Below, in pieces: positions 1,769 to 18,443 of a stretch of 41,264 bases of DNA (position 1 is the stretch's first letter; each line of letters starts with the position of its first letter). A model generated the notes under the pieces. The model had not been told where the DNA came from and did not search any database. It saw only the letters and a list, made by a program, of their open reading frames with translations. This stretch comes from an uncultured Oscillospiraceae bacterium. GTDB lineage: Bacteria > Bacillota > Clostridia > UMGS1883. The stretch spans positions 1 through 41,264 of the forward strand of contig CAZKBV010000004.1 of the NCBI GenBank assembly GCA_964551215.1, read 5' to 3'. The position numbers and the translations under genes were made by a program.

Positions 1769-1806
1769 AAAAACGGTTCGTCATGCAAACGAACCGTTTT
1801 TCTTTA
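1769..1806. terminator. Bidirectional rho-independent terminator between convergent proS and the GTPase-NYN gene
   Basis: AAAAACGGTTCG / CGAACCGTTTTT stem of about 12 bp with a 9-nt loop. A-run upstream and T-run downstream. Confidence 0.8.
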
Positions 1807-1877: not shown

Positions 1878-4487
1878 CTATTCCGTCGACGGCGGAATCT
1901 CCATGTACGCCCTGTTTTTATCCGCCTCAAACGTCCGAAGAATATCTCTTATGGCATTTTCCGCATTTTCAACCTCCGTCTGAAGCTCTCCGGCGGAAAT
2001 TCTCAATGCTCCGCCGCCTAAGGTTATTATCTGCTCCAGCCGGTCGGAGGTCGCTACACGCACCCTGTGATTTTTTACCAGCTTGTGGGTCACCTTTTCA
2101 ATATACATATCGGCGGTTTCCGCTTCCTTTGTGTACACAACGTCGATATTGCCGATTCTTTCGGTTTCTCCCCTGTTGCCCTTTACCTTATAGGCGTCGA
2201 ACACCACAATTATTTCAATGCCGCTGTAGCCCTTGAAATTGGAAAGTATGTCTATAAGGGCGCTTCGGGCGGCTTCGGGGCTTTCGTCCGCCGTTTTTTT
2301 CAGCTTATCCCATGAAAAAATCACATTGTAGCCGTCCACAAGCAGATATTCCGGCCCTGTAGGAACGGGGCGGGACTTGTATTTTTCCGCCTCCTCACTT
2401 TTGGGAGGCTCTTTTCTTGTTTCCATCGAATAACGGATATCCCGGCGTATGGGGCCGTATGTCCGCTCAAATATTTTTATAAGCTCCGCGTCGTCCGCCG
2501 CGCGGGATATATAATCCATCGCCCGCCGCTTTGCCGAGGCTTCCTGCTCCGAGCCGCCAAGGGAATATCCGCTTTGAAAGTGCATACTTTTTGCGGCCTC
2601 GTTCCACTTCACGGTGTATCCCGCGCCTCCGGCGCAGAACACCGAGTCCGCCGGATTGTCCAAATCGGACGCCGGGTCATATGCCGCCGCGCTTATTACC
2701 TCATCGCTGTTATGGCACGGACGGTATCCGCCGAATCTGTAGCTGAGCCTTCCCCGCCCTCCCGTATAGGACGCCGTTTCCGCGGCATAGTCCTGCATTT
2801 CCGAAGCCGGAGCTTCCCCCTTTATTACAGCCTCCGTCCCCTTCAGCAGCGGTCGGGAAAACTCCGCTCCCATTCTTTGAAGGTCGGCAAGCGCCCGTCC
2901 CAAGCCTTCCGGCGGAACCGTAAGCTCAAAAGCGTAATACGGTTCCAGCAGCACCGACTCAGCTTGCATAAGTCCTTGGCGCACCGCCCTGTATGTGGCC
3001 TGACGGAAGTCGCCGCCCTCAGTGTGCTTTTTGTGGGCGCGGCCACCTATTAACGTAATTTTCATATCCGTTACGGGCGCTCCCGTCAAAACGCCACGGT
3101 GCTGCTTTTCATAAAGATGTGTGAGAATAAGCCGCTGCCAGTTTTTGTCAAGGACGTCCTCGCCGCAATCGCTGCCGAATACAAGGCCGCTCCCCCTCGG
3201 CCCCGGCTCCATAAGCAAATGCACCTCGGCATAGTGGCGCAAGGGTTCATAATGCCCACAGCCCACAACGGAGGAATTAATGGTTTCCTTATAGGCGATG
3301 CTCCCCTTGCCGAAGGAAATATCGTAGCCGAAGCGATCCTTTACCAGCCTTGCCAGCACCTCAAGCTGTACCGCGCCCATCAGCCTCACCTTTATTTCCC
3401 GATGCTGTTCGCTCCACTCGACGCGGAGCTGAGGCTCCTCCTGTTCAAGAAGGCGGAGCTGTTTAAGAGCGGTTTGAGGGTTCACCTCCGGCGGCAGTAT
3501 AACGCGGCAGCTCAAAACAGGCTCCAGCAAAGGGAGAACGCCGCCCTTTTCGTATCCCAACCCTTCTCCGGCCTTGACCTGAGAAAGGCCGGATACGGCG
3601 CAAACATCTCCCGCCGAAGCTTCTTCTGTCTCCTTATATTTTGCTCCGGAGTATATTCTTATGCGGCTCACCTTTTCCGAAAGCCCGTTTTGTTCTATAA
3701 CATCCCGAACGTGAAGCTCTCCGCCGGTGATTTTCATGTACGCCAGCCGTCCCAGCCTTTCGTCCTCGGCAATTTTAAACACTCTTGCCCCGAACGCGGA
3801 TGGATATTTTCTGCCTCGGGTGTATTTCAAAAACACGCAGATAAATTCCTTCACCCCGTTTTGCTTCAATGCCGCCCCGAACATACAGGGGAAAACATTT
3901 CTTCGTTTTACGCAAGCGGCGACGGTTTCCTCTTCAAGGGCTTCCTTTTCGAGAAATTCCTCCGTAAGCGCGTCGTCAAGCATGGCAAGCTCCTCTCCCA
4001 GCTTGTATGCGTCCTCTTCCCCGAAATCCACGAAGCCCTTCCCCAGCCGATTATTGAGGGAATCAATAATTTCCCTTCGGGAATAAGCCGCGATGTCGGT
4101 TTTGTTTACAAACACAAAAACAGGAACCCTGTACCTTTCCAGAAGCCGCCACAGAGTTTCCGTATGGCTCTGAACGCCCTCTGCGGCGCTGATTACCAGT
4201 ATGGCGTAATCCAAAACGCTGAGGGTTCTCTCGGTTTCCGCGGAAAAATCCACATGGCCGGGAGTGTCCAGAAGCATTATTTCCGTTTCGGGAAAATGAA
4301 GCAGAGCCTGCTTGGAAAATATGGTAATTCCCTTTTCTTTTTCTATGGCATAGGTGTCCAAAAAGGCGTTTTTGTGATCTACCCGTCCCAATGTGCGTAT
4401 TTCTCCGGCCTCGTAAAGCAGACTTTCGGAAAGGGTGGTCTTTCCGGCGTCAACATGGGCCAATATTCCTACCGTAAGTTTTTTCAT
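1878..4487 (-). CDS. EF-G/Tet(M)-family translational GTPase fused to a C-terminal YacP/Rae1-like NYN ribonuclease domain
   Basis: G1 AHVDAGKTT, G3 DTPGH and G4 NKTD, with a Tet(M)/EF-G-like length for the first ~640 aa. The last ~157 aa carry LLVDGYN, VVFDA, ETADMYIE and TSDRLEQ, as in B. subtilis YacP/Rae1. ATG at 4487 follows AAGGGA; the track ATG at 4496 lies inside the RBS. Confidence 0.85.
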   Translation of the reverse strand: MKKLTVGILAHVDAGKTTLSESLLYEAGEIRTLGRVDHKNAFLDTYAIEKEKGITIFSKQALLHFPETEIMLLDTPGHVDFSAETERTLSVLDYAILVISAAEGVQSHTETLWRLLERYRVPVFVFVNKTDIAAYSRREIIDSLNNRLGKGFVDFGEEDAYKLGEELAMLDDALTEEFLEKEALEEETVAACVKRRNVFPCMFGAALKQNGVKEFICVFLKYTRGRKYPSAFGARVFKIAEDERLGRLAYMKITGGELHVRDVIEQNGLSEKVSRIRIYSGAKYKETEEASAGDVCAVSGLSQVKAGEGLGYEKGGVLPLLEPVLSCRVILPPEVNPQTALKQLRLLEQEEPQLRVEWSEQHREIKVRLMGAVQLEVLARLVKDRFGYDISFGKGSIAYKETINSSVVGCGHYEPLRHYAEVHLLMEPGPRGSGLVFGSDCGEDVLDKNWQRLILTHLYEKQHRGVLTGAPVTDMKITLIGGRAHKKHTEGGDFRQATYRAVRQGLMQAESVLLEPYYAFELTVPPEGLGRALADLQRMGAEFSRPLLKGTEAVIKGEAPASEMQDYAAETASYTGGRGRLSYRFGGYRPCHNSDEVISAAAYDPASDLDNPADSVFCAGGAGYTVKWNEAAKSMHFQSGYSLGGSEQEASAKRRAMDYISRAADDAELIKIFERTYGPIRRDIRYSMETRKEPPKSEEAEKYKSRPVPTGPEYLLVDGYNVIFSWDKLKKTADESPEAARSALIDILSNFKGYSGIEIIVVFDAYKVKGNRGETERIGNIDVVYTKEAETADMYIEKVTHKLVKNHRVRVATSDRLEQIITLGGGALRISAGELQTEVENAENAIRDILRTFEADKNRAYMEIPPSTE

Positions 4488-4506
4488 AGCGTACATCCCT
4501 TGGATA

Positions 4507-5154
4507 TTACTGCTTCAATACCTTTTTGACTTGCTCTTCCTTGCCCATAACAAGGATATTTTCGCCCTGCTTGAACACGTATCCGGGGCCGGGCTGAGGA
4601 TAAAGCTTGTCGTCTTTTCTCACCGCCAGAATGTCTAACCCGTACTTGGCGCGGACATCCTTTTCCAGAATACTTTTGCCCCTCCACCCCGCCGGAGCGG
4701 CAATCTCAAATATGCCGTACTCATCATCCAGCACGAAATAGTCAAACACATTCCTCGCGCCGTATTTTACGGCAAGCTGCTCGGCGATATCCCGTTCGGC
4801 GTAAACAACGTAGTCCGCGCCGTTTCTTAGCAGCAGCTTTTTATGCACGTCCCTTGTGGCGCGGGCGATAATATATTTTGCCCCGAAATCCGCCGCAAGG
4901 ACTGTGGTTTCCAGCGCTTTAAGGAAGTTATCCCCTATGGCGACCACCACAATGTCGAAATTCCCCACTCCCAGCGACGCCATAAATTCGGAATCCGACG
5001 AATCGCCTATCTGCGCGTTGCGCACAAAGCCCAGCACGGAATTTACTCTTTCCTCGCTTATATCCACCGCAAGCACGGAATTTCCTTCCTCGATAAATTT
5101 CTGAGCCATATGGCGGCCAAAGCGTCCAAGACCTATTATAAGAATTGATTTCAC
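4507..5154 (-). CDS. ktrA: K+ uptake system peripheral NAD-binding subunit (TrkA-N/TrkA-C, KtrA type)
   Basis: 215 aa. Rossmann motif IIGLGRFG and a KtrA-like length. Confidence 0.9.
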   Translation of the reverse strand: MKSILIIGLGRFGRHMAQKFIEEGNSVLAVDISEERVNSVLGFVRNAQIGDSSDSEFMASLGVGNFDIVVVAIGDNFLKALETTVLAADFGAKYIIARATRDVHKKLLLRNGADYVVYAERDIAEQLAVKYGARNVFDYFVLDDEYGIFEIAAPAGWRGKSILEKDVRAKYGLDILAVRKDDKLYPQPGPGYVFKQGENILVMGKEEQVKKVLKQ

Positions 5155-5166: not shown

Positions 5167-6510
5167 CTATCCTATCTGCACAGGCTCCGTGGGCAGACTT
5201 GACGGCACGTTTTTCTTTGTGCCGATAGCCGAAAGCACCGTAACAGAGCCTGCCCGTCCCACAAGCATAAGCAATATTACTATAATTTTTGAAGCCGCGC
5301 CTAAGTCTCTTGTTATTCCAAGGCTCAGCCCCACTGTGGCAATCGCCGACGCGGCCTCAAAAAACGCCGCGTCCATGGGAAGCTTATCGACAAAGGATAT
5401 AAACACCGCCGAAAACAGTGTCGCCATTATATAGAAAACTATCACCACCAAAGCCGTTCTCTGGGTGTTTTCGTCTATTCTTCTGCCGAAACATTCGGCG
5501 TGCTTTCTTCCCCGGATAATGGATATGGCCGAAATAAAGGGAATCGCCACCGTGGTGGTTTTCATTCCTCCGGCTGTCGAGCCTGTGGAGCCGCCCGCAA
5601 GCATAAGGCATATCATAACTATTTTGCTGTGAACGGTAAGGGCGTTTAGGTCAACGGTGTTAAAGCCGGCGGTTCTGGCCGAAACAGACTGAAAGCATGA
5701 ATAGAGCAGCTTCTTCCACAGGCTCGTATGTCCGTAAAGAGAGCCGCCGTTTTCAAACAGAATCAATAGCCCCGTCCCCATAGCGGTAAGCACAAGGCTC
5801 ACCGTAAGCACAAGCTTTGTGTGGAGGCTTATGTTTTTCAGGCTGTGGCGGTTGTTCCACAGATCCTCCCATACAAAAAAGCCCAGTCCGCCGATTATTA
5901 TCAACAGCATCAGTATAACGTTGACGTAAACATTGTCCCGAAGGCTTGTCATTGAGGAATATTCCTCCACGCTTCCCATAAGGTCAAAGCCCGCGTTGCA
6001 GAAAGCCGACACAGAGTGGAAAATGCCGTAATATATTCCCTTAAGCCCCAGCTTCGGGCAGTAATAAGCGGAAAGCAGCGCGGCTCCCGCGCCCTCGCAA
6101 ATAACCGTGCAGCGGATTATCAGCTTTGTCAGGCGCGCCACTTCGCTCAGCTTCGGCAGGGAAATGGCATCCTTTGTCAGCAGTCTTAAATTAAGCCCCA
6201 AAGGTATCCTTGTGAAGGATATAGCCGTGACCGCAATTGTCATGAATCCAAGGCCGCCTATCTGTATTAAAGACAGTATCACAAGCTGGCCGAAAATGGA
6301 CCAGTACGAAAACGTGTCCCGCAGAACAAGCCCCGTAACGCAGGCGGAGCTTGTGGCCGTAAAAAGAGCCGTAAGCGGGCTTGTAAATTTTCCGCTTACG
6401 GAAGAAACCGGCAGCGCCAGCAAAAACGCTCCGGCAAGTATAATAAGGCAGTACCCCAAAAGAAGGGTTTGCGTGGGGGAAAGCTCCTTTTTGTTTTTCC
6501 GAGGCTCCAA
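5167..6510 (-). CDS. ktrB: K+ transporter membrane subunit (TrkH/KtrB family)
   Basis: 447-aa polytopic membrane protein with repeated pore-loop GGxG-like segments (IGGLGF, GGSTGSTAGGMK). TTG start 7 nt after AAAGAGGTG. Confidence 0.9.
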   Translation of the reverse strand: MEPRKNKKELSPTQTLLLGYCLIILAGAFLLALPVSSVSGKFTSPLTALFTATSSACVTGLVLRDTFSYWSIFGQLVILSLIQIGGLGFMTIAVTAISFTRIPLGLNLRLLTKDAISLPKLSEVARLTKLIIRCTVICEGAGAALLSAYYCPKLGLKGIYYGIFHSVSAFCNAGFDLMGSVEEYSSMTSLRDNVYVNVILMLLIIIGGLGFFVWEDLWNNRHSLKNISLHTKLVLTVSLVLTAMGTGLLILFENGGSLYGHTSLWKKLLYSCFQSVSARTAGFNTVDLNALTVHSKIVMICLMLAGGSTGSTAGGMKTTTVAIPFISAISIIRGRKHAECFGRRIDENTQRTALVVIVFYIMATLFSAVFISFVDKLPMDAAFFEAASAIATVGLSLGITRDLGAASKIIVILLMLVGRAGSVTVLSAIGTKKNVPSSLPTEPVQIG

Positions 6511-6690: not shown

Positions 6691-9198
6691 TCAATAATCC
6701 AAATATTCCGTATCCTCCCAAAGCTCAAAGCCGCCCAAATAGCTGTGTCTGAGCCTATAAAACGAAGCATAGCGGTTGGGGAACAAAAGCTGCAGAGCCT
6801 TCTGACGATCCCTGTTGCCGTAGCATATGAAGTAAAGTCGGCCAAACTCGGCAAAATCCTCAGTGGAATTATTGCCGCCATATTCGCTGACTGATATCAT
6901 GTCGTCATTTATGGCCTGAGCCCAGCCGTTTCCTTCGGCCCAGCCACCGGCTCCGGCGGAAACGCTGTGGGACATTTCATGGCAGAGAATTCGGAGCATT
7001 GTGTCCGTATCGCGAGTTCCCTGCACACGTATGTAAAGGTCGGAATAGCCGCAGTTAAAGCTGTTTGCCTCATCCTCCCTGATTTTGACGGTTTTTATAT
7101 TTTTTCTGTAGACATACGGTATGCGGATAAACGCCTCGGGGAAATACTCCGCGTTGCGTTTGGGGTCGTCGCTGTTCTGAACGTAAAGGGCTATAGTCTG
7201 CTGAACGGAGCCGTCGGCGGCATAAATTGAAAGGTTATACTTTGTTCCCGAAATCATCGTGCCGTTCCATAGGTCGTAGGTTCCTTCTTCGCCGTCAGTG
7301 ACCTTATATGTGACGCCGCTTGTCCCCGGAAGCTCCGCGCTGACGGGGCAAAGCGAAATTGTGCCGTCCGTCATAAGATAACCGCCACTGACGCTGAGAA
7401 AATTCGTCAGCTTATTATAAAGCTCGTCGTCGCTGCCGGCGGCTTCCTTATAAATATTGTCTATACGTTTGCGAGGCGTCCACTCCGCGCCGATTATATC
7501 ATTGCTGTAGCGGTCGAACACATCTCCCGCCACTGTCTCGTAAATCATTTCAAGACGTCTGCGCTGAGCCTTGCTGAGCCGCCCGTAGGCGTCGGTTTCG
7601 GATATCAGCCGCAAAGGACTTTCCTCATTCAGCGGTTCAAAAATAAGTTCAATTTTATCCTTTTCGTTTACGGCTGTAAGGTAACCGTCGGAAAGCCCCA
7701 CGTACATACCGTTTTCCGCGCTTTTCAGATAATACGCCGGAGCTTCGTCGCTGTAATTTTCGCTTTCTTCAAGGATCCAGTGCTGGCTGATGCCGTTGTA
7801 ATCGTAATCTCCGCTTACCAAAGGGCCGCTGTCAGCGGCGGTTATTCTTCTTTCGGAGGAACGGCACACAAAGGCAAAAGTGCCGTCGCCCATATCTCGG
7901 GGCAGGAACATTGCGCTTTCGCCCTTAACCGCCGTCCAATCGGCGGAAAGCCTGCCGTTGTTTCCCCGAACATATTTCCCATTAGCTCTCACCCCGTAAT
8001 ACCGTCCGGCAAAGCCGCTGTATAAGGGGTCGTCAACTATTGTCTCGGCGTTAAAGCCGGTAATATAAAAGCTGTAATCGGAATAATCCTCCCCGCTGAC
8101 AAGGGTTTTATGACTGTTGCTTATCAACGCGAGGGAATCCAGCTTAGAGCCGTTTGTTCTGGCATTAACAGGGCCGCCGGTATAGGTTTCGCCCTCCTCA
8201 TCGGTAATGGCTATAGTGTAGCTGTTTTCGGCGACGCTGCCGTATATTTTAATCTTATATGTTTTGCCCTCTTCGGCAGGGCAAATGTTTACGGCGGCGG
8301 CGGTGTAGCTTCCGCTGCCGTTGCCGTTTCTGACGGCAAAATCGCTTCCGTTAAATAAAAGTATAACGGAGGAATTTGCGTAATCCAAAACGGTCTTATC
8401 GCTGTCGTGGAGCATAACGGCATTGTCGCCCTTTTTAACAAGGGTAAGCTCAAAGCTCATTTCGTATTCTCCGTCCAAGGCTTCAAAGCTGTGATACGCA
8501 ATGGTGGCGGAGTGGTTGGTTTTCTGGTCGTCGCTGTACCACTTTTCAACCTCCGGTTCCTTTAATTTAAAGGTAAAGTTCGCCTCAGCCGTTTCGTTTT
8601 CATAAACGATAAGCGTCAACGACGCGCTGTCCGTCGGTTCCATATTTTCGGGAGCTGACGCCGTTACGGTGTACTCTCCCACGGGAATGTCCGTGAAGCT
8701 GTAGCTTCCGTCCGCCGAGGTTTTAACGGTTTTTGCGCCGAAATCCTTCGAGGAAACAGTAATTTCCACATTTTCCAAAGCCGCGTTTTCAGCGTCCTTT
8801 ACAATTCCGCTTACCGTTCCCAATGCCGGACCGCTGTAGGCGGAGCCGTCAACTATCCCGTCGGCAGTAAGGGCGGACAGCATTTTCGCCGCGGGAGACA
8901 TATTCTCCATATTCCACAAAAAAACCTTTGCAATAGAATCCGCGCCCACTTTTTCGGCGTCCAGCGTAAGAAAAGCTCTGTTGTCCGATACGATTGAGCT
9001 GCATACCGATTCAAGGCCGTTTTCGCCGTAAAGGGCAAGCACCGCCGTCAGTCCGTTTTCCGCATTATAAAGCCCCACGCTTATCTCCCCGGGAGCAAGC
9101 GCGGTATTTCCCCATTCCACTCGTAAATCCGTGCCGAAAACCGGTAGGCAGACACTGAGCAAGCAAAACACCGACAATACGCATAACAGCTTCTTCAT
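6691..9198 (-). CDS. Secreted multidomain protein with a C-terminal ATLF/M34-like zinc metallopeptidase domain
   Basis: Signal peptide MKKLLCVLSVFCLLSVCLPVFG. CarboxypepD_reg-like segment GIVKDAEN...YSFTDIPVGEYTVTA. Beta-trefoil-like middle region. HEMSH (6967-6981) plus downstream EDFAEF (6844-6861), as in lethal-factor/PPEP-type peptidases. Confidence 0.75.
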   Translation of the reverse strand: MKKLLCVLSVFCLLSVCLPVFGTDLRVEWGNTALAPGEISVGLYNAENGLTAVLALYGENGLESVCSSIVSDNRAFLTLDAEKVGADSIAKVFLWNMENMSPAAKMLSALTADGIVDGSAYSGPALGTVSGIVKDAENAALENVEITVSSKDFGAKTVKTSADGSYSFTDIPVGEYTVTASAPENMEPTDSASLTLIVYENETAEANFTFKLKEPEVEKWYSDDQKTNHSATIAYHSFEALDGEYEMSFELTLVKKGDNAVMLHDSDKTVLDYANSSVILLFNGSDFAVRNGNGSGSYTAAAVNICPAEEGKTYKIKIYGSVAENSYTIAITDEEGETYTGGPVNARTNGSKLDSLALISNSHKTLVSGEDYSDYSFYITGFNAETIVDDPLYSGFAGRYYGVRANGKYVRGNNGRLSADWTAVKGESAMFLPRDMGDGTFAFVCRSSERRITAADSGPLVSGDYDYNGISQHWILEESENYSDEAPAYYLKSAENGMYVGLSDGYLTAVNEKDKIELIFEPLNEESPLRLISETDAYGRLSKAQRRRLEMIYETVAGDVFDRYSNDIIGAEWTPRKRIDNIYKEAAGSDDELYNKLTNFLSVSGGYLMTDGTISLCPVSAELPGTSGVTYKVTDGEEGTYDLWNGTMISGTKYNLSIYAADGSVQQTIALYVQNSDDPKRNAEYFPEAFIRIPYVYRKNIKTVKIREDEANSFNCGYSDLYIRVQGTRDTDTMLRILCHEMSHSVSAGAGGWAEGNGWAQAINDDMISVSEYGGNNSTEDFAEFGRLYFICYGNRDRQKALQLLFPNRYASFYRLRHSYLGGFELWEDTEYLDY

Positions 9199-9250
9199 AC
9201 GATACGCACCCTCTCTCGCAAGCCTTTATTTTTTCGGATATCCTTTATTT

Positions 9251-9279
9251 ATTTTATAACATTCTCAAATATTTGTCAA
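9251..9279 (-). promoter_or_regulatory. SigA-type promoter for the 835-aa secreted protein gene
   Basis: Minus sense reads TTGACA (9279-9274), 17-nt spacer, TAAAAT (9256-9251). TGTTATAAA gives an alternative extended -10. Confidence 0.55.
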
Positions 9280-9340
9280 TACTTTTTAATTTAACCAAGC
9301 TAAAACCAAAGCTTTATTAAAATTTTTAAACAAGCTGTCC

Positions 9341-9415
9341 GCTCCCCGCGCCGGCTGCAATCTATCGCAAGCTCTGTTTCAAGCAAGCTTGCCGGAGCGT
9401 TGCTCCGATTTAAAA
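9341..9415 (-). repeat. 75-bp structured intergenic repeat, copy B (inverted relative to copy A)
   Basis: Reverse complement aligns with 1581-1655 without gaps: arms 22/22 and 31/33, with a divergent 20-nt core carrying the GCAAGCTTGC palindrome. Confidence 0.9.
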
Positions 9416-9445
9416 GAGGTGTAAGAATTAACCTTACACCTCTTT
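9413..9445 (-). terminator. Rho-independent terminator of the ribosomal/alpha operon downstream of rplQ
   Basis: 13-bp stem AAAGAGGTGTAAG / CTTACACCTCTTT with a 7-nt loop. Minus sense is followed by TTTT; an A/T run on each side makes it potentially bidirectional. Confidence 0.75.
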
Positions 9446-9483
9446 ATACGTTAAAGCTTGTATTAAAGCTTTTTTGCCGCTAT

Positions 9484-9564
9484 GAAACTCGGTTCTGAGA
9501 TTTTCAGAGCCGAAATTTTCAGCCCTGAAATTTTCAGCCCCGAAACTTTCAGTCCCTTTCAGCC
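9484..9564. repeat. 15-bp tandem repeat array, about 5 units, consensus GAAATTTTCAGCCCY
   Basis: Units at 9497-9511, 9512-9526, 9527-9541 and 9542-9556, with degenerate or partial units at both ends. Each unit embeds the palindrome CTGAAAtTTTCAG. Confidence 0.9.
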
Positions 9565-9593
9565 GACAAACCGTCTGCGTTATTTTTGCGGCT

Positions 9594-9938
9594 TTAGTCC
9601 ATAAGCTTGATTACGGCCATAGGCGCACAGTCACCCCGGCGAACGCCCGTCCTGATGATCTGTGTATATCCGCCCTGACGCTCTGTGTACTTGGGAGCAA
9701 TCTCGTCGAAAACCTTCTTAACGACATCTTCCTTTGTTATAAAAGAAAGAGCCTGTCTGCGCGCGTGAAGGTCGCCTCTTTTGCCGAGAGTAATCATGTT
9801 CTCGGCGAGAGCGCGGATTTCCTTTGCGCGGGTTACGGTAGTCTCGATTTTGCCGTTTTCCAAAAGAGCAGTCACCTGGCCCCGAAGCATTGCCATTCTA
9901 TGGTCGGTTTTACGACCGAGCTTTCTTGTTCCAGCCAT
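9594..9938 (-). CDS. rplQ: 50S ribosomal protein L17
   Basis: 114-aa L17 sequence at the last position of the alpha operon. Confidence 0.97.
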
Positions 9939-9994
9939 TGATATTCCTCCTTATTCGGGTCCAAAGACCACGGTTGATTTTAAACGCGATTTAA

Positions 9995-10951
9995 TCAGTC
10001 CTCATCGGGGGCGAAGCTGAGTCCCAGAGTCTGAAGCTTATTGCACACCTCGTCAAGGGACTTGCGGCCCAGATTGCGAACCTTCATCATTTCTTCTTCT
10101 CTGCGCTGGGTAAGGTCTTCAACGGTGTTGATACCCGCACGCTTCAAGCAGTTGTAGGAACGAACCGAAAGATCAAGCTCCTCAATTGTCATTTCAAGAA
10201 CCTTCTCCTTCTTTGTTTCTTCCTTCTCCACCATGGTTTCCACATTCATGGCTTCGTCCGTAAGCTGGATAAAGAGCATCATGTGGTCGTTGATTATCTT
10301 GGCCGCGAGACTTATTGCTTCGTCCGCGGTCTTTGTGCCGTTAGTCCATACCTCTATTGTGAGCTTGTCGAAGTCGGTATTTTGCCCCACACGGGTATTC
10401 TCAACGGAATAATTGACCTTATGAACGGGTGTGTAGATGGAGTCCACCGGAATAAGACCTATAAAGGGCTGGCTCATGGCCTTGTTTTTCTCAGAGGAAA
10501 CATAGCCCCTGCCCTTGCCCACCGTAAGCTCCATATAAAGCTTTGCGTCCTCGTTAAGAGTCGCAAGGTGAAGGTCTCCGTTAACTATTTCCATATCGCT
10601 GTCGCAGCGAATATCCCTGGCGCAAAGCTCGCCTGCGCCTTCGGCCTCAATATAAACGGTCTTGGGGCCGTCGCCATGGAGTTTGATTATGACCTGCTTG
10701 ATATTAAGCACGATCTCGCTTACGTCCTCTTTAACTCCGGGGATGGTGGAAAATTCGTGCTGTATGCCATCAATTTTGATGGATGTGATTGCCGCACCCT
10801 CAAGAGAGGAAAGCATCATTCTGCGAAGGGAATTTCCTAAGGTCGTGCCGTAGCCCCTTTGAAGAGGAGCAACGGTATATTTCCCGTAGGAACCGTCCTC
10901 GCTGAGCGCCGTACGCTCAAGACGAGGCTTTTCAAATCTTAAATCTGTCAT
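9995..10951 (-). CDS. rpoA: DNA-directed RNA polymerase alpha subunit
   Basis: 318 aa. N-terminal dimerisation domain and a C-terminal CTD helix-hairpin-helix ([16 protein letters not shown]). Confidence 0.97.
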
Positions 10952-11008
10952 AGTTAAACCCTCCTACTTTATTTACTTTTATGTGAATAAGTTGACCGAG
11001 GGAGACTA

Positions 11009-11602
11009 TTACTTGGAATACAGCTCGACGATAAGCGTCTCGTTGATTTCAAAGTCAATATCTTCTCTCTTGGGAACATCAACCACAGTTCCTGTAAGAG
11101 TGTTTTTGTCAACGCTGAGCCACTTGGGAGCAACACGGGAAGAATTTGCCTCTGCTATGTCCTTAATCCACTGGGCGGAAGCTGTTTTCTCCTTAAGGGA
11201 AACAACGTCGCCGGTTTTTACAAGGTAAGAGGGAATGTCAACGCGCTTGCCGTTTACAAGCACATGGCCGTGAGTTACTATCTGGCGAGCCTGACGGCGG
11301 GTATCTGCCAGACCGAGCCGGAAGATAACGTTGTCAAGTCTGCTTTCAAGAATGGCAAGAAGATTTTCACCTGTTATTCCGGCCTTTTTTTCAGCCATAA
11401 CGAAGTATGTTCTGAACTGCTTCTCCAGCACGCCGTAAATAAACTTCGCCTTCTGCTTTTCATTGAGCTGAAGACCGTATTCGGACTGCTTTCTTCTCTG
11501 GGGTCCGGGATTGCGATTGCTCTTCTTGTCTACGCCCATAACGCCGGGCTCAATGCCCAGAGTTCTGCAGCGCTTTAATACGGGTTGCATATTTTTAGCC
11601 AT
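11009..11602 (-). CDS. rpsD: 30S ribosomal protein S4
   Basis: 197-aa S4 sequence in operon context. Confidence 0.97.
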   Translation of the reverse strand: MAKNMQPVLKRCRTLGIEPGVMGVDKKSNRNPGPQRRKQSEYGLQLNEKQKAKFIYGVLEKQFRTYFVMAEKKAGITGENLLAILESRLDNVIFRLGLADTRRQARQIVTHGHVLVNGKRVDIPSYLVKTGDVVSLKEKTASAQWIKDIAEANSSRVAPKWLSVDKNTLTGTVVDVPKREDIDFEINETLIVELYSK

Positions 11603-11623
11603 TTTGGTAACCTCCTTTTATAA

Positions 11624-12019
11624 TCAGACTCTTCTTCTCTTGGGAGGACGGCAACCATTGTGAGGGATGGGAGTTACGTCCTTAATGAGAGTTACCTCAA
11701 GACCTGCGGCCTGAAGCGCGCGTATTGCCGCCTCACGTCCGGCGCCGGGTCCCTTAACGAATACCTCAACCGTCTTGAGGCCATGCTCCATAGCAGCCTT
11801 TGCCGCGGTTTCAGCCGCGCTCTGAGCCGCAAAGGGAGTGCTCTTTCTGCTCCCTCGGAAGCCCAGGCCGCCTGCGCTTGCCCAGGAAAGAGCGTTGCCG
11901 TTTACATCGGTAATCGTTACTATAGTGTTATTGAAAGTGCTGCGGATATGAGCCGCGCCGCGTTCAATGTTTTTACGTTCCTTACGCTTGCGAACAGTTC
12001 TTTTTACCGTCTTAGCCAT
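11624..12019 (-). CDS. rpsK: 30S ribosomal protein S11
   Basis: 131-aa S11 sequence. Confidence 0.97.
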
Positions 12020-12031
12020 GCTCTCTCCTCC

Positions 12032-12400
12032 TTACTTCTTCTTATTGGCTATCGTGCGCTTGGGACCCTTACGGGTTCTCGCGTTTGTCTTTGTTCTCTG
12101 GCCGCGGCAGGGAAGCCCCTTTCTGTGGCGGGTTCCTCTGTACGAACCGATTTCTATGAGACGCTTTATGTTAAGCGCAACGTCACGGCGAAGGTCGCCT
12201 TCCACAACGTATTCCTTATCAATGGCGTCTCTTATTTTGGCAACCTCGTCCTCGGTTAAGTCCTTAACGCGGGTGTCGGGGTTAATACCTGTTTTTGCAA
12301 GGATTTTATTTGCACTGCTTCTGCCTATGCCGTAAACGTATGTGAGACCTATCTCAACACGTTTTTCTCTGGGCAAATCAACACCGGCTATTCTTGCCAT
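12032..12400 (-). CDS. rpsM: 30S ribosomal protein S13
   Basis: 122 aa, starting [14 protein letters not shown]. Confidence 0.97.
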
Positions 12401-12530
12401 CCTTTAATACACCTCCAAAGTTTATTGACACGGTTTTTTGTAATAAGGGTGATAAAATTGCGCTTCCTTCGGGCAGCCGTCTCGGTTTTCCCTCGCCGGC
12501 TTCAGCCGCACCCATACAGACGGCAAACAA
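12401..12530 (-). promoter_or_regulatory. Structured 130-nt rpmJ-rpsM spacer; candidate alpha-operon (S4-type) ribosomal leader
   Basis: Minus sense contains a GCCGTCT...AGACGGC helix enclosing a CGGC-TGAA-GCCG hairpin, then a second GCTGCC-CGAA-GGAAGC hairpin, all upstream of the rpsM RBS GGAGGTG. Confidence 0.35.
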
Positions 12531-12656
<126 letters not shown>

Positions 12657-12684
12657 CTATATATTAGCTGGGTGAGAATTTATC

Positions 12685-12903
12685 TTATTTTGCTCTCCAT
12701 GTAATTCTCCCGCGAGTGAGGTCGTAGGGAGAAAGCTCCACCGTAACCTTGTCGCCGGGTAAAATCCTGATAAAATTCATTCGAAGTTTACCTGAAATAT
12801 GCGCCAATATTTGATGTCCGTTAGGCAGCTCAACCTGAAACATCGCGTTTGGAAGAGCCTCCAATACAGTACCTTCAAGTTCAATCGCGTCGTCCTTAGC
12901 CAA
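12685..12903 (-). CDS. infA: Translation initiation factor IF-1
   Basis: 72-aa S1-like OB fold sequence. Confidence 0.97.
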
Positions 12904-13150
12904 GGCAACAACCTCCTTCGGATATATAATTCTTTATGACCTTTCTCACGTGGGCGTTCAGCTTCAGCTTCGAGACGTCCGTCTCGGCTCCCGTGAATTC
13001 CACATGTTTAATTTGTTTTTTCTTGGGCTTATCCATCGTTCGCCGACGGCCATCCGCAAGGAAAAGATTCTTTCCCTCCGCGCTCAGCACAACGTAAAGT
13101 CTGCCTTTATCGTGGCCTGCCGTCGAACGGACTATTGCTCCCTTTTCCAT
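12896..13150 (-). CDS. Small KOW-domain RNA-binding protein (YbzG-like) between map and infA
   Basis: 84 aa. KOW-like [18 protein letters not shown]. Overlaps the infA start by 8 nt. Confidence 0.75.
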
Positions 13151-13158
13151 AATCCGCC

Positions 13159-13911
13159 TCAGTTAAGAGTCAGGTAAACGGGGCCGTTATCCGTTACCGC
13201 AACCGTATTTTCGTAATGTGCCGCAAGACTTCCGTCCGCGGTTCTCACCGTCCAGCCGTCATGACTGTCAAAGGTAACGGCGTAATTTCCGGCTGTTATC
13301 ATAGGCTCAATGGCAATTACCATATTTCTTACGAGCCTGATGCCGTGACCGCTATGGCCGAAATTGGGAACGTCCGGAGCCTCGTGGAGATTTTTCCCCA
13401 CTCCGTGGCCCACAAGCTCCCTGACCACTCCGAAGCCGTTAGCCTCGGCATATTCCTGAACAGCCGCCCCGATATCTCCGACACGGTTTCCGGCGGCGGC
13501 CTTTGCGGCGCCCCTGAAAAAACATTCCTTTGTTACATCAATAAGCTTCTGAGCCGCTTCGCTTATATTCCCCACGGGGAAGGTGCGGGCCGCGTCGCTG
13601 TGATATCCCTTATAGAAAGCCCCGCCGTCTATACTGACGATGTCGCCTTCCTTAAGCACAACCTTATTGGAAGGGATTCCGTGGACTACGACCTCGTTGG
13701 GAGATACGCAGCAGCACGCCGGAAAGCCTCGGTAGCCTTTAAACGAGGGCTTTGCGTGGTGGGAAAGAATAACCTTTTCCACCACGGCATTGAGCTCGGC
13801 TGTTGTCATGCCGGGCTTAACGGCTTCCTCCGCCCTGCTGAGAGCCTCGGCAAGTATCTTGCCCGCCTCGGCCATCCTCTCAATTTCCGATTTGGTTTTA
13901 ATAACGATCAT
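13159..13911 (-). CDS. map: Type I methionine aminopeptidase
   Basis: 250-aa M24A sequence with metal ligands in conserved context. Confidence 0.95.
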   Translation of the reverse strand: MIVIKTKSEIERMAEAGKILAEALSRAEEAVKPGMTTAELNAVVEKVILSHHAKPSFKGYRGFPACCCVSPNEVVVHGIPSNKVVLKEGDIVSIDGGAFYKGYHSDAARTFPVGNISEAAQKLIDVTKECFFRGAAKAAAGNRVGDIGAAVQEYAEANGFGVVRELVGHGVGKNLHEAPDVPNFGHSGHGIRLVRNMVIAIEPMITAGNYAVTFDSHDGWTVRTADGSLAAHYENTVAVTDNGPVYLTLN

Positions 13912-14546
13912 TTCTCAACACCGACAGCCTTCATTACGTTTTTCGTTGTATCCTCCAGCTTCTCGCAACCCTTAGCGGTGCGGAGAAGATTTCTGGAGCG
14001 GTAAAATTCCTTAAGAGGCTCTGTCTGGTTGTGATAAACCGAAAGACGGCGGCGTACGGTTTCGGGCGCGTCGTCGGAACGGAGAATCAGTTCTCCGCCG
14101 CACTTGTCGCACTTTCCCTCCGTTTTCGGAGGATTGTACTTTACGTGGTAGGGTGCCGCGCAGCTTTTACACTCGCGTCTGCCGCTGAGCCGCTCAACAA
14201 TTGCCTCATCCTCAACTTCTATGTTAAGGGCGCAGTCTAAAGCTATGCCCATGCCCTCCATTGCCTCGGCCTGAGGAATCGTCCTCGGAAAACCGTCAAG
14301 GATGTATCCATTTCGGCAGTCCGGTTCTTGTATTCTCTCCTTGACCATAGAGATGACCACATTATCGGGAACAAGCTCGCCCCGGGCAATGTAGCCCTCA
14401 GCGTCAAGACCAAGGGGTGTTTTTTCGCCGATAGCCTTTCGGATAATTGCTCCGGTGGAGATATGGGGTACGCCAAGCTTTTCCTTAAGAATTTCGGCTT
14501 GAGTTCCCTTTCCTCCTCCCGGAGGACCCATTATAGTCAATTTCAT
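13908..14546 (-). CDS. adk: Adenylate kinase with a Cys4 zinc lid
   Basis: 212 aa. P-loop GPPGGGKGT. Lid CKSC...CDKC. Confidence 0.97.
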   Translation of the reverse strand: MKLTIMGPPGGGKGTQAEILKEKLGVPHISTGAIIRKAIGEKTPLGLDAEGYIARGELVPDNVVISMVKERIQEPDCRNGYILDGFPRTIPQAEAMEGMGIALDCALNIEVEDEAIVERLSGRRECKSCAAPYHVKYNPPKTEGKCDKCGGELILRSDDAPETVRRRLSVYHNQTEPLKEFYRSRNLLRTAKGCEKLEDTTKNVMKAVGVEK

Positions 14547-14564
14547 TTTTATCGCCTCATAAAA

Positions 14565-15884
14565 TTATTCCAGGAAGCCCTTATAGTGACGCATGAGCAT
14601 CTGGCTTTCGATTTGTTTAACCGTTTCAAGGGCAACGCCTACAACGATCAGCAGGCTGGTACCCGTGAGAGCAACGGAGCTGAGAGAGCCGAGTCTCGGA
14701 ATACATTCACTGACAACAATCGGGAACACGGCAACTATGCCAAGGAAGATAGCGCCGACAAGGGTGATTCTTCCAAGCACCTTAGCGATATAGTCGCTGG
14801 TAGGTCTGCCGGGACGAAGCCCCGGTACCATGCCGTTATTTTTTCTGATGTTATTGGACACTTCTACCGGATTAAAGGTTATAGAAGTATAGAAGTAGGT
14901 AAATCCAACAATCAGCAGGAAATATACAAGGGGATAGAAAATTTTGCTTATAAGTCCGCCGCTGCCCGTTACAAACCTTGCGATGGAAACAAGCACGCCT
15001 GTACTCTTGCCGAAAAGCTGGGCAAGAGTTGCGGGGAAGGTCATGATGGACATGGCGAAGATGATGGGAATTACGCCCGCCATAGCAACCTTAATGGGAA
15101 TAAAGGTGCTCTGTCCGCCGTACATCTTTCTGCCGACCACGCGCTTTGCGTACTGAACGGGTATTCTGCGCTCAGCCTCGTTGATAAGGACAACGAATGT
15201 GATGGACGCAATGACGTAAATCGCAAGAATTACAAGCCACCACCACTGTTTCTGGCCGCCGGACATGAAGTTCTGCCACGCGGTCATAATCATTGTGGGA
15301 ATACGGCTTACGATACCGGCAAAAATAAGCATTGAGATACCGTTGCCTACGCCCTTGCCGGTGATTTCCTCGCCCAGCCACATAAGGAACGCCGTACCGG
15401 CTGTGAATGCGACTATAATCGTAATCATTACCATTATGTGAGGGATGCCGGAAACATTCATAACCGCTCCGTTACGGCTCAGAGTAAGGGCAAGGCCCCA
15501 AGACTGAAGCGCCGCGAGAGCAACCGTAAGATAACGGGTGATTTTTGTTATCTTCTTTCTGCCCTCTTCACCCTCCTTGCTCATTCTCTCAAGAGCGGGA
15601 ATGGCGACGCACAAAAGCTGCATAATAATGGAGCTGTTGATATAAGGTGTGATGGACATCGCGAATATGGTTGCGTTGGAGAAGCTGCCGCCGGAGAATG
15701 TATCCAGCAGATTGAAGAGGGTACTGCCCCCGTCGCCGGCCATCCATTCCTTTACAACCGAAGGATCAAGCCACGGCACCGGAATAACGCTGCCGAGGCG
15801 GAATATAACCAAAAGGAAAATTGTGTATAATATCTTTTTGCGAAGGTCAGGTATCTTCCATGCATTACGAATAGTTTCGAGCAT
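14565..15884 (-). CDS. secY: Preprotein translocase subunit SecY
   Basis: 439-aa protein with 10 TM segments and SecY sequence, at the expected spc-operon position. Confidence 0.97.
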   Translation of the reverse strand: MLETIRNAWKIPDLRKKILYTIFLLVIFRLGSVIPVPWLDPSVVKEWMAGDGGSTLFNLLDTFSGGSFSNATIFAMSITPYINSSIIMQLLCVAIPALERMSKEGEEGRKKITKITRYLTVALAALQSWGLALTLSRNGAVMNVSGIPHIMVMITIIVAFTAGTAFLMWLGEEITGKGVGNGISMLIFAGIVSRIPTMIMTAWQNFMSGGQKQWWWLVILAIYVIASITFVVLINEAERRIPVQYAKRVVGRKMYGGQSTFIPIKVAMAGVIPIIFAMSIMTFPATLAQLFGKSTGVLVSIARFVTGSGGLISKIFYPLVYFLLIVGFTYFYTSITFNPVEVSNNIRKNNGMVPGLRPGRPTSDYIAKVLGRITLVGAIFLGIVAVFPIVVSECIPRLGSLSSVALTGTSLLIVVGVALETVKQIESQMLMRHYKGFLE

Positions 15885-15885
15885 T

Positions 15886-16326
15886 TTAGATCACCTCCAC
15901 CTTACCGCCGGCAGCTGTAATCTTAGCTTCGGCGCCCTTCGTTACGCGGGCTGCCTTAACAGTTACCTTCTTTGTAATTTCGCCTCTTCCGAGTACCGCC
16001 ACGCCGTCCATAATCTTTGAAATGACGCCGGCTTCCTTGAGAGCGGCCGCGTCGATAACCGCGCCGTCATCAAATTTATTAAGCTGAGAAACATTTACCT
16101 CCGCGTAAGACTTTGCAAAAATATTCTTAAAGCCTCTCTTGGGCAAACGTCTGAACAAGGGCATCTGGCCGCCTTCAAAGCCGGGGCGCACACCGCCGCC
16201 GCTGCGCGCGTTCTGGCCCTTATGTCCGCGCCCTGCGGTCTTTCCGTTTCCCGAGCCCGCTCCTCTGCCCTTTCTCTTGGCTTCGGTCTTGCTTCCGGGT
16301 GCGGGTCTAAGCTCATCGAGTTTCAT
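15886..16326 (-). CDS. rplO: 50S ribosomal protein L15
   Basis: L15 sequence starting [15 protein letters not shown] at 16326 follows GAAGGAGGTG; the track TTG at 16344 is an over-extension. Confidence 0.95.
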
Positions 16327-16340
16327 TTGCCACACCTCCT

Positions 16341-16520
16341 TCAATTTTCTTCAACAGTTACAAGATGGCCCACCTTGTTAATCATGCCTCTTATCTGGGG
16401 CGTGTCATTATGAAGGACCACATCGTTTGTTTTCTTAAGACCGAGAGCCTTAACCGTAGCTATCTGGTCGGCTTTGCGGCCGATTGTGCTCTTTACAAGA
16501 GTTACCTTAAGCTGTGCCAC
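16341..16520 (-). CDS. rpmD: 50S ribosomal protein L30
   Basis: GTG at 16520 lies 6 nt after AAGGAGGAG. Product starts (M)[10 protein letters not shown], 59 aa. Confidence 0.9.
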
Positions 16521-16533
16521 GTTAATCTCCTCC

Positions 16534-17049
16534 TTACAGTTCTTCAACCGCCTTGCCTCTCAGGCGAGCCACTTCTTCAGCGCTCTTAAGAGAAGCAAGA
16601 CCGGCAATCGTTGCTCTTACAACATTTGTGGGATTGTTGCTGCGAAGGCACTTTGTACGGATATTTTTGATTCCGCATGCCTCCATAACCGCACGCACGC
16701 TGCCTCCGGCGATAACGCCGGTACCTTCCTTGGCGGGCTTTATAAGAACTCTGCCCGCACCGAACTCACCGATTATATCGTGAGGTATTGTATTTTCAAC
16801 AAGGGGGACGGAAATCATATTTTTCTTTGCGTCCTCGATTCCCTTGCGGATAGCGTCGGGAACTTCAGTAGCCTTGCCAAGTCCGCAGCCTACCTTGCCC
16901 TTGCCGTCGCCCACTACCACGAGTGCGCTGAAGCGCATTGTACGGCCGCCCTTTACAGTTTTGGCAACACGGTTGATTCTTACGACCTTTTCGACTATAT
17001 CGCTTTCGGCCGCATTGTTTCTGCGATCATTGCGTTCACGCTCTGCCAT
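16534..17049 (-). CDS. rpsE: 30S ribosomal protein S5
   Basis: 171-aa S5 sequence. Confidence 0.97.
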
Positions 17050-17067
17050 TGTTTCCTTCCTCCTTTC

Positions 17068-17424
17068 TTAGAATTCCAGGCCGCCTTCACGGGCGCCTGC
17101 CGCAAGCTCCGCCACGCGTCCGTGGTAAAGATAGCCGCTGCGGTCGAATACAACCGTATTGATTCCCGCCGCCTTTGCCTTTTCCGCTACCAGCTTGCCA
17201 ACCTTACTTGCCGCCGCCTTGTTTCCGCCGTACTCGCCCTTAAGCTCGAGACTTGACGCGGATACAAGAGTTACGCCCTTTTCATCATCTATGATCTGCG
17301 CGTAAATATTATTAAGGCTTCTGAACACATTAAGACGGGGACGCTGCGCTGTTCCGACAATCTTGTTGCGGATACGGCGGTGTCTCTTAAGTCTTGCCTT
17401 ATTGCTGCTGGGCTTACTAATCAT
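17068..17424 (-). CDS. rplR: 50S ribosomal protein L18
   Basis: 118-aa L18 sequence. Confidence 0.97.
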
Positions 17425-17441
17425 ATCGCCAATCTCCTCTC

Positions 17442-17990
17442 TTACTTCTTAGCCTTGCCGACCTTACCTTCCTTGCGTAAGATGCGCTCGGAAACGTACT
17501 TAATGCCCTTGCCCTTATAAGGCTCGGGAGGTCTTTTCTCGCGGATTTCAGCCGCAACCTGACCGACAGTCTGCTTGTCTGCACCCTTAATGATGATGCT
17601 CGTCTGAGAGGGGCACTCGATGGTTATACCTTCAACAGGAGTATATTCAACATTGTGAGAGTAGCCCAAGTTGAGAACAAGCGTCTTGCCCTGCATCTGC
17701 GCTCTGTAACCGACGCCGTTGATTTCAAGCTCCTTGGAAAAGCCGTTTGTTACGCCTTCGACCATGTTGTGAAGCAGACTTCTCGTCAATCCGTGAAGAC
17801 TTTTGTGCGCCTTGTCGTCGCTCGGACGTTCAACCTTCAGAACGCCTGCCTCCTGCTTTATTATCATATCACCGTGAAGCCGGCGGCTGAGAGTACCCTT
17901 CGGACCCTTGACCGTAACAACATTTCCCTCGGCGACATCAACTGTTACTCCGGCGGGAACGGTGATAGGCATTCTTCCTATTCTTGACAT
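17442..17990 (-). CDS. rplF: 50S ribosomal protein L6
   Basis: 182-aa L6 sequence. Confidence 0.97.
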
Positions 17991-18014
17991 ATTTTCACCA
18001 CCTAATTCTTTTTA

Positions 18015-18413: not shown

Positions 18414-18443
18414 GAGTAAACCTCCTTTTCCAAAAGCTTATTT

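Follow-up and report, generated by a model that had tools for sequence, protein, structure and literature searches.

A Rae1-type endonuclease fused to an EF-G-like GTPase in Clostridia: a further member of a large family with a possible role in ribosome rescue

Rae1 of Bacillus subtilis (YacP) is an endonuclease whose cleavage of mRNA depends on the ribosome, is associated with collisions and feeds into trans-translation (PMC12407103; PMC13622287). Its recruitment to ribosomes is unexplained, and no ribosome-bound structure of it exists, the binding being transient (bioRxiv, PMC13622287). Nuclease domains of this type (NYN_YacP) have also been found joined to translational GTPases. TetM-like GTPase–NYN_YacP fusions were reported from 'ten species' by Atkinson 2015 in BMC Genomics, with the sequences given in Additional file 8 (PMC4342817), and Matelska 2017 in NAR described TetM–NYN_YacP fusions from certain Clostridia, considering their role unclear (PMC5499597). 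The GTPase fusion is not mentioned in the phylogenetic survey of Rae1 in PMC13622287. In this article, a gene encoding such a fusion is analysed. It lies on the minus strand of a 41,264-nucleotide (nt) stretch of DNA from an uncultured Oscillospiraceae bacterium (GenBank assembly GCA_964551215.1, contig CAZKBV010000004.1), which is called the window below.

An earlier note on this DNA, made from the sequence alone, had suggested that the architecture might be new. The two reports above had already described it, so the fusion as such is no discovery, and the window protein adds to a family noted twice before. It is 54% identical over 861 amino acids (aa) to YP_004106010 of Ruminococcus albus 7 and 52% identical over 854 aa to YP_001036467 of C. 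thermocellum ATCC 27405, both among the sequences of Atkinson 2015. With the published fusions it shares the domain order and the same motifs in domain IV, in the nuclease domain and in two conserved modules between the halves, called X1 and X3 here. The number of members now far exceeds the 'ten species' of 2015.

The open reading frame (ORF) is uninterrupted, as had been claimed, translation from 4487 to 1878 giving 869 aa, and all the Pfam domains proposed for the protein match within this one frame. GTP_EFTU covers aa 4-222 (expectation value, E, 3e-48), EF-G_D2 aa 233-308, EFG_IV aa 396-509 and EFG_C aa 512-594, while the EFG_III match at aa 322-393 is weak and under the cut-off. NYN_YacP (PF05991) matches aa 715-856 with E 1.2e-47 and 162.4 bits, far above the cut-off of 24.6. 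Compared with the sequences of solved structures, the N-terminal 590 residues match EF-G at 3e-73 and Tet(O)/Tet(M) at 1e-69, and the C-terminal part resembles 5MQ8/5MQ9, crystal structures of B. subtilis YacP/Rae1, at 1e-25. An AlphaFold2 model, with a mean predicted local distance difference test (pLDDT) of 75.9, finds its best structural matches in the PDB among EF-G structures (E ~1e-50). All of these scores greatly exceed chance expectation. The GTPase motifs recognised earlier (AHVDAGKTT, DTPGH, NKTD) are all present, and so are the Rae1-like signatures LLVDGYN, VVFDA, ETAD and ATSD. Acidic residues of the NYN active site are likewise in place: D718, D764, D793 and D815 align with D7, D53, D81 and D104 of Rae1, so that D718 and D793 correspond to the catalytic pair D7 and D81, exchanged in the published D7N D81N catalytic mutant (PMC10351889).

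The fusion is a real architecture shared by a large, Clostridia-wide family with many gut and environmental members. More than 190 independent assemblies, belonging to Oscillospirales, Lachnospirales, Monoglobales and Peptostreptococcales, contain a full-length homologue with 47-73% identity. At least 120 clusters of the protein database show full-length coverage, 56-73% identity and an identical Pfam set, and a scan of one genome per species gave at least 80 full-length loci at 47-56% identity. Among the matches listed, these loci belong to Faecalibacterium, Ruminococcus, Intestinimonas, Flavonifractor, Oscillospiraceae, Acutalibacteraceae, Lachnospiraceae (Blautia, Dorea, Anaerobutyricum, Herbinix, Robinsoniella), Ruminiclostridium, Anaerovorax and Fusibacter; the fusion is also found in Monoglobus and Agathobacter. 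A search of aa 660-869 against 1.84 billion representatives at 50% identity returned 344 matches at E <= 1e-30, the best 150 of which are mostly fused proteins or contig-edge fragments of such proteins. An assembly or annotation artefact joining two genes, for which no supporting point was found, has a negligible probability, because the same uninterrupted architecture recurs in all these assemblies with conserved junction motifs throughout, isolate genomes included (R. albus 7, C. thermocellum ATCC 27405, Intestinimonas, Flavonifractor, Anaerovorax).

A few carriers are labelled as something other than Clostridia. Two unannotated 'Bacteriophage sp.' records from human faeces (MT835563.1, 5421-7955; MT835514.1, 15276-17762) and a contig binned as Alloprevotella sp. 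of the Bacteroidota (L072) each hold a full-length Clostridia-type fusion, at 48-56% identity. All three are probably contigs of Clostridia that were wrongly classified or binned.

Conservation within the family points to two working enzymes. Among 195 aligned members, which have 49-73% identity to the window protein, K16, T17, T55, D74, G77, H78, K129 and D131 of the GTPase and D718, G719, Y720, N721, D764, D793 and D815 of the nuclease are kept in 195/195, where 75 locus-derived sequences had been chosen by the G1 motif and DGYN and 119 database proteins had not been so chosen. Since the catalytic residues of both halves are retained, both activities are under selection. The core idea of the earlier note, a GTPase that carries a nuclease to the ribosome, would remain the best hypothesis for the family. 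In its specific form, in which the fusion would be a GTPase-delivered Rae1-type mRNA endonuclease for ribosome rescue, we give this proposal about an even chance of being right.

The GTPase half is neither a Tet protein nor EF-G proper. Its likeness to Tet(M), stressed earlier, proved superficial. With Tet(M)/Tet(O)/Tet(W) it shares a five-domain EF-G-like organisation, a short G' region and a similar length over the first ~600 aa, at 29-31% identity; X1, X3 and the NYN domain are additional in the window protein, which is not carried on a mobile element. The tip loops of Tet domain IV contact and dislodge the drug (PMC4342817), and it is here that the proteins part, the Tet(M) loop GLYYSPVSTPADF being replaced by an invariant GGRAHKKHTEGGDF in the fusion, with loop I also unlike. 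Atkinson 2015 had speculated on a tetracycline ribosomal-protection protein combined with an RNase, a reading in keeping with the Tet(M)-like length and domain order, with tet_protect (NF012153) as the best NCBIfam model and with public annotations of the homologues, which often read 'TetM/TetW/TetO/TetS family'. The tet_protect score, however, is 404 bits against a cut-off of 775 (tet_protect_M_W, 274 against 1100), X1 is missing from Tet(M), and the fusion genes are chromosomal and non-mobile, in variable contexts in many species, in contrast to the true tet genes, which are found in the viral-contig and plasmid collections. A role in tetracycline resistance is therefore considered very unlikely.

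EF-G itself is the best match of aa 1-594 in both sequence and structure. The five-domain fold, the G1-G5 motifs and the catalytic His are all intact in the window protein, which nevertheless scores 288.6 with TIGR00484 against a cut-off of 659.4. Its G domain is ~77 aa shorter than that of EF-G, as judged from the alignment offset, the G' insert being reduced rather than full. Further departures concern the tip of domain IV. EF-G loop I, GGRGQ(Y/F)GH (TGGRGQYGH in the aligned sequence), is deleted and replaced by the four residues shorter GHYEPLRHYAEVH, with EPLRHYAEVH in its place, and GRAHKKHTEGGDFRQ stands where EF-G has GSYHEVDSSEMAFK; the His is retained there, H485 being almost invariant and aligning with H573 of Thermus thermophilus. 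Domain IV is the most conserved region of the family, with a mean column identity of 0.85 vs 0.70-0.75 elsewhere, and its tip is under the strongest constraint in the protein. An unusual cluster of invariant or nearly invariant His and acidic residues is located at this tip (H412, E414, H418, H423, H485, H488, E490, D493), each present in 192-195 of the 195 members and having no counterpart in EF-G or Tet(M).

The region between the two halves had been described as a charged linker of ~75 aa. It is more than a plain linker, since aa 595-640 and 664-682 are the conserved modules X1 and X3, set apart by two variable segments, X2 and X4. X1 is predicted to form a helix, a beta-hairpin and a short helix, and C591, C618 and W628 of this region are invariant. 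Neither X1 nor X3 has a Pfam match, even at E 10. In Oscillospirales the spacing is tight (58-60 aa from X1 to X3 and 40-41 aa from X3 to the NYN domain); it grows by tens of residues in Lachnospiraceae, and the idea of the linker as a fixed-length ruler was rejected. The tether comprises ~30 disordered residues and two helices, and its extended reach is estimated to be of the order of 100 A.

Such a long tether, predicted to be disordered, would also suit two modules that work independently, so that the fusion would merely co-regulate an EF-G paralogue and a Rae1 nuclease, with neither delivery nor gating. Each module is indeed known alone, the X1-bearing GTPase in Lactobacillaceae and Rae1 in many Firmicutes. 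The fusion nevertheless persists in at least four orders of Clostridia, with the fusion-specific X3 conserved between modules whose catalytic sites are both strictly kept, and both modules are ribosome-associated by homology. Mere co-regulation is thus regarded as decidedly unlikely next to delivery of the nuclease by the GTPase.

The unfused Lactobacillaceae proteins show how the fusion may have been assembled. They are 47-49% identical to aa 1-636 of the window protein, including HFEPLRHYxEVH and X1, and end after X1 (640-660 aa), lacking X3 and the NYN domain. They are encoded on chromosomes or megaplasmids in Ligilactobacillus, Companilactobacillus, Levilactobacillus, Paucilactobacillus and Pediococcus under names such as 'translation factor GTPase family protein', 'elongation factor G' or 'TetM...' (e.g., WP_164920261 of L. 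salivarius pMP118); no characterised one was found. Since the domain-IV motifs and X1 recur in these proteins, which have nothing beyond X1, this module belongs to a distinct EF-G paralogue family to which X3, X4 and the NYN domain were added. This X1-bearing family was defined in the present analysis, not by a curated database, and the window protein carries all its motifs: GH(Y/F)EPLRHYxEVH, HTxGGDFRQ and PCxN...SVFCxxGxGxxVxW...MH.

Two observations on unfused GTPase genes may be added. In L. salivarius UCC118 pMP118 (L081, 5402-7920), the gene for a 644-aa unfused paralogue is divergent to a second rpsN (S14) and a 'putative metal homeostasis protein' gene, surroundings which may represent a zinc-related alternative ribosomal-protein cluster; the rpsN adjacency was not seen in Levilactobacillus or Companilactobacillus. 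In one Eubacteriales metagenome-assembled genome (MAG; L080, ~8000-10000, minus strand), a divergent gene for a 606-aa translational GTPase paralogue, which belongs to the same blast cluster and lacks the NYN domain, adjoins the fused gene upstream.

The nuclease half, for its part, is a captured Rae1 homologue, as suggested by its ~61% identity to stand-alone YacP proteins of uncultured Clostridia, its closest relatives, whose genes lie in the canonical cysS-mrnC-rlmB-yacP-sigH cluster. The flanking motif EYLLVDGYNIIFAW is the same in the fused NYN domain and in stand-alone Clostridial YacP. Canonical YacP is a single-domain protein of ~170-180 aa encoded in that cluster; in the window, the domain ends an 869-aa protein whose gene lies between ktrA and proS. 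B. subtilis Rae1, a 170-aa single domain encoded after rlmB, is 40-47% identical to it and has in common the NYN_YacP fold, the four active-site Asp residues and the D-GYN motif as defined in PMC5499597. The window domain lacks the last ~25-residue helix of Rae1. This C-terminal helix, which follows the nuclease core as ...LSEEVLKTFEKWRRG in Bacillus and as ...KNNMLxDNLD..TA..LE.MR in Clostridia, is absent from the Oscillospirales subtype, to which the short-tailed window protein belongs, whereas fusions of the Lachnospiraceae and Ruminiclostridium type keep its NYLxDxL motif. The simplest history suggested by these sequences would be that the GTPase gene captured a whole Rae1 gene and that the C-terminus was later trimmed in one lineage. 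The GTPase was also considered as a substitute for the basic C-terminal helix of Rae1; this idea could apply to the Oscillospirales subtype only, as the Lachnospiraceae-type fusions retain the helix motif.

One further gene is of note here. At 8001-8585 of locus L177, a 194-aa stand-alone NYN_YacP protein (P0348) combines an N-terminal X3-like motif (MSQEELEHIFSRK...) and a basic linker with the stand-alone-type C-terminal motif NYLLEAM. Its gene follows a His_Phos_1 gene and is neither beside a GTPase gene nor in the rlmB cluster. P0348 may be a fission product of the fusion.

Stand-alone yacP lies with the rRNA-processing genes mrnC and rlmB, and from this gene context early surveys proposed a role for YacP in rRNA or tRNA processing (PMC5499597; PMC4342817). 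In the fusion, the GTPase could bring the NYN domain to the factor site for cleavage of rRNA or tRNA, serving maturation, inactivation or turnover of ribosomes, for example in starvation or sporulation; a nuclease tethered there would presumably be physically near elements of 16S and 23S rRNA. The domain is, however, 61% identical to canonical YacP with the same catalytic and GYN motifs, and its sequence gives no sign of a changed substrate. An rRNA- or tRNA-directed nuclease is accordingly held to be an unlikely alternative to mRNA cleavage for ribosome rescue.

The distribution of fused and stand-alone genes is in part consistent with a Rae1-like role. The order rlmB then yacP is found in Bacillus, Listeria, Staphylococcus, Aerococcus, Latilactobacillus, Clostridioides and Acetoanaerobium, and a 2.6-Mb Acetoanaerobium record contains stand-alone YacP only. 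In Monoglobus, Vescimonas and Subdoligranulum, rlmB has no yacP downstream, as seen in chromosome pieces mislabelled as 'plasmid' records. In Monoglobus the fused gene is the sole NYN_YacP match in at least 1.72 Mb of records, one assembly record lying outside the collection, which fits the fusion acting as the Rae1 of that organism. The window and the flanks of 80 loci contained neither a second NYN gene nor a second EF-G-like gene. Several PLSDB 'plasmid' records are evidently chromosomal: NZ_OY725726-741 (Monoglobus), NZ_AP023416 (Vescimonas, 861 kb), NZ_CP154629 (Acetoanaerobium, 2.63 Mb) and NZ_CP143948 (Agathobacter, 252 kb). They were judged to be chromosome pieces or whole chromosomes because rlmB, secA, ftsH and similar genes are present, and they are a trap for plasmid statistics.

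For a GTPase-delivered Rae1-type nuclease, the following course of action may be proposed. The GTP form would dock in the ribosomal factor-binding site (sarcin-ricin loop/GTPase-associated centre), as homology suggests, and the conserved, family-specific tip of domain IV would probe the decoding centre. The factor might thereby recognise a ribosome unable to proceed, either stalled or blocked behind a stalled leader. The tethered NYN domain would then cut the mRNA where it enters the bound ribosome, or between this ribosome and the stalled one ahead, the latter being where B. subtilis Rae1 cuts. The truncated mRNA would let transfer-messenger RNA (tmRNA) rescue the ribosomes, and GTP hydrolysis on the ribosome might time the reaction or release, and so reset, the factor. 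The earlier note had started from the premise that Rae1 acts in the A site. That view is outdated, as the same laboratory revised it in 2025 and placed the cut at the tail of stalled or collided ribosomes. Given a cut at this position, the most economical geometry would have the GTPase bound to the trailing ribosome, which is blocked in translocation and whose side of mRNA entry would face the mRNA exit of the leader; alternatively, the cut could fall close to the entry side or the A-site side of the bound ribosome.

Several points weigh against ribosome rescue by GTPase delivery. The mapped cut of Rae1, at the tail of the stalled ribosome, is far from that ribosome's own factor site (2025 Rae1 work; PMC12407103), so the model needs either disome geometry or another cut site. 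B. subtilis Rae1 works as a stand-alone, single-domain protein, and a GTPase is thus not intrinsically required. The AlphaFold model has a predicted template modelling score (pTM) of 0.49 and gives the relative placement of the domains, including NYN versus domain IV, no confidence. Stand-alone YacP proteins close to the fused NYN domain are common among the vaguely named MAG proteins of uncultured 'Clostridiales' and 'Eubacteriales', and fused and stand-alone forms may therefore co-occur in some lineages. As the Oscillospirales subtype lacks the C-terminal helix motif of YacP, its substrate contacts may differ. Finally, full-text literature searches found no functional or experimental study of any family member, in agreement with the earlier note, which knew of no characterised one.

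Analogies with other rescue systems are in concept only. SmrB of E. coli and Cue2 of yeast are nucleases acting on the mRNA of stalled or collided ribosomes, and have an unrelated fold (SMR domain); in Dom34-Hbs1, a translational GTPase delivers an A-site probe, again with unrelated folds (eRF1-like and eEF1A-like). To our knowledge, no covalent GTPase-nuclease fusion has been described for any of them. A bolder proposal would make the family a new class of ribosome quality control, in which an EF-G-like GTPase senses translocation-blocked ribosomes, the tethered Rae1 cuts inter-ribosomal mRNA under GTP control, and the fusion has replaced stand-alone Rae1 in much of Clostridia. Read as a Rosetta stone, the fusion would then imply that Rae1-type nucleases generally act beside the factor-binding site of the trailing ribosome, and that the unfused X1-GTPases of Lactobacillaceae are separate partners. 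This extended proposal is tentative and is rated well below an even chance.

The genomic setting shows no recurrent neighbour. Clustering of all ORFs of at least 80 aa around 77 loci revealed no cluster occurring more than twice at any of eight flanking positions, and the neighbourhoods of the unfused Lactobacillaceae paralogues were likewise unconserved. The helix-turn-helix (HTH) neighbours mentioned by Matelska 2017 were not seen, although the 80-aa cut-off could miss small HTH proteins. For the same 77 loci, ktrAB was dropped as a family-wide partner. Apart from fragments, the fusion was found in only two 'plasmid' records, both of them chromosome pieces, and was essentially absent from IMG/VR, where the scan gave true tet genes (~30% identity). 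The window region itself is core chromosome, with proS, rpoA, secY and an S10 operon with a Clostridia-type leader. The gene is chromosomal and apparently house-keeping, and its neighbours in the 77 loci are house-keeping genes that vary from locus to locus.

These data also bear on defence against phages, an abortive response to infection having been suggested in the earlier note. The coupling of a nuclease to an NTPase is a common defence logic. An effector of this kind would shut down translation in the infected cell, and the recent Rae1 preprint speculates that collision-triggered cleavage could strike phage mRNAs (PMC13622287). A search with PADLOC-DB 2.0 gave 0 defence families at E <= 0.01, conserved or defence-type neighbours are missing, and the fusion is nearly absent from viral contigs. 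Moreover, it is a single chromosomal copy with non-defence neighbours in every locus examined, here proS, ktrAB and ribosomal-protein operons. An anti-phage function is thus not borne out and is held to be most improbable.

Features of the gene and its surroundings are collected in Table 1. An in-frame ATG at 4496-4494, three codons earlier, would give the longest ORF (872 aa). The ATG at 4487 was kept as the start because the homologues begin with MK+L (MK+L..GILAHVD in the alignment) and a Shine-Dalgarno-like sequence precedes it by 8 nt. The 19-nt gap between ktrA and the fusion gene, noted before, is confirmed; it contains neither a terminator-like nor a promoter-like site, and a promoter-like TTGACA-17-TAAATT (6592-6564) lies upstream of ktrB. 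On these grounds, co-transcription of ktrB, ktrA and the fusion gene is probable in the window. The ktrB-ktrA-GTPase transcript put forward earlier is therefore plausible here, but it is not a feature of the family, given the lack of any recurrent neighbour. The bidirectional terminator claimed at the 3' end was recovered as a hairpin, which could act both ways because an A-run and a U-run flank its stem; proS is convergent to the fusion gene across it. The convergent intergenic region (1577-1877, 300 nt) contains three strong hairpins, the further two being a GC-rich one at ~1711-1738 and another at ~1672-1700, and has no Rfam match.

Table 1. Coordinates of the fusion gene, its encoded domains and neighbouring features in the window
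Feature	Coordinates	Strand	Remarks
EF-G-like translational GTPase + Rae1/YacP NYN endonuclease, whole ORF	1878..4487	-	869 aa + stop; full-length homologues
G domain (aa 1-222)	3822..4487	-	G1 AHVDAGKTT, G2 GIT55, G3 DTPGH78, G4 NKTD, G5 GAAL
Domain II (aa 233-308)	3564..3791	-	EF-G_D2, GTP_EFTU_D2
Domain III (aa 322-393)	3309..3524	-	EFG_III weak; fold from AlphaFold model
Domain IV (aa 396-509)	2961..3302	-	EFG_IV; family-specific tip loops GHYEPLRHYAEVH (411-423), GRAHKKHTEGGDFRQ (482-496)
Domain V (aa 512-594)	2706..2954	-	EFG_C
X1 (aa 595-640)	2568..2705	-	conserved module PCHN...ADSVFCxxGAGxxVKW...MH
X2 (aa 641-663)	2499..2567	-	variable, acidic, predicted helical; expanded in Lachnospiraceae
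X3 (aa 664-682)	2442..2498	-	fusion-specific motif DxELxxIFERTYGPI(R/K)R, predicted helical
X4 (aa 683-712)	2352..2441	-	variable Lys/Pro-rich tether; predicted disordered, pLDDT <50
NYN_YacP/Rae1-type endonuclease domain (aa 713-858)	1914..2351	-	D718, D764, D793, D815, GYN motif
C-terminal tail (aa 859-869)	1881..1913	-	non-conserved; without NNxLxDNL...R.G helix motif of stand-alone Clostridial YacP
Shine-Dalgarno-like AAGGGA	4496..4501	-	8 nt before ATG 4487
Intrinsic terminator hairpin, 14-bp stem	1769..1801	.	-18.8 kcal/mol, z -4.3; ends transcript
ktrA-like gene	4507-5154	-	TrkA_N/TrkA_C; directly upstream of fusion gene
ktrB-like gene	5167-6510	-	TrkH; upstream of ktrA-like gene
S10/spc/alpha ribosomal-protein gene block	9995-25230	-	secY 14565-15884; rpoA 9995-10951
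S10-Clostridia ribosomal-protein leader RF03136	25243-25325	-	51 bits; upstream of S10/spc/alpha block

Elsewhere in the window, two regions can be described. Upstream of the S10 leader, the usual rpsL-rpsG-fusA-tuf genes are replaced by those for an SLH/CBM_4_9 protein (25634-28570) and an RlmL-type methyltransferase. At 6691-9198 on the minus strand, an 835-aa protein with an N-terminal signal-like sequence is encoded, in which a CarboxypepD_reg/Big-like domain (aa 128-209) is the sole recognised one and a HEMSH (HExxH) motif occurs near the C-terminus; this may be an unrecognised secreted metalloprotease.

The value of the present analysis lies in linking an under-noticed observation of 2015 and 2017 to the new biology of Rae1, described since 2025 as a collision-rescue nuclease of Gram-positive bacteria. 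Carriers of the fusion include major gut commensals (Faecalibacterium, Ruminococcus, Agathobacter, Blautia, Intestinimonas) as well as cellulolytic clostridia that are amenable to genetics. As a strictly conserved natural fusion, it offers a testable hint to the site of Rae1-type nucleases on the ribosome or disome, and also a structural handle, as a nuclease-dead protein that is also GTPase-dead or locked with GDPNP would be expected to remain ribosome-bound. An annotation correction follows as well, many such genes bearing the label 'tetracycline resistance ribosomal protection protein' and so inflating the resistome counts of gut metagenomes. This family, abundant in gut Clostridia and widely mis-annotated as tetracycline resistance, thus bears on the question of how Rae1 recognises collided ribosomes.

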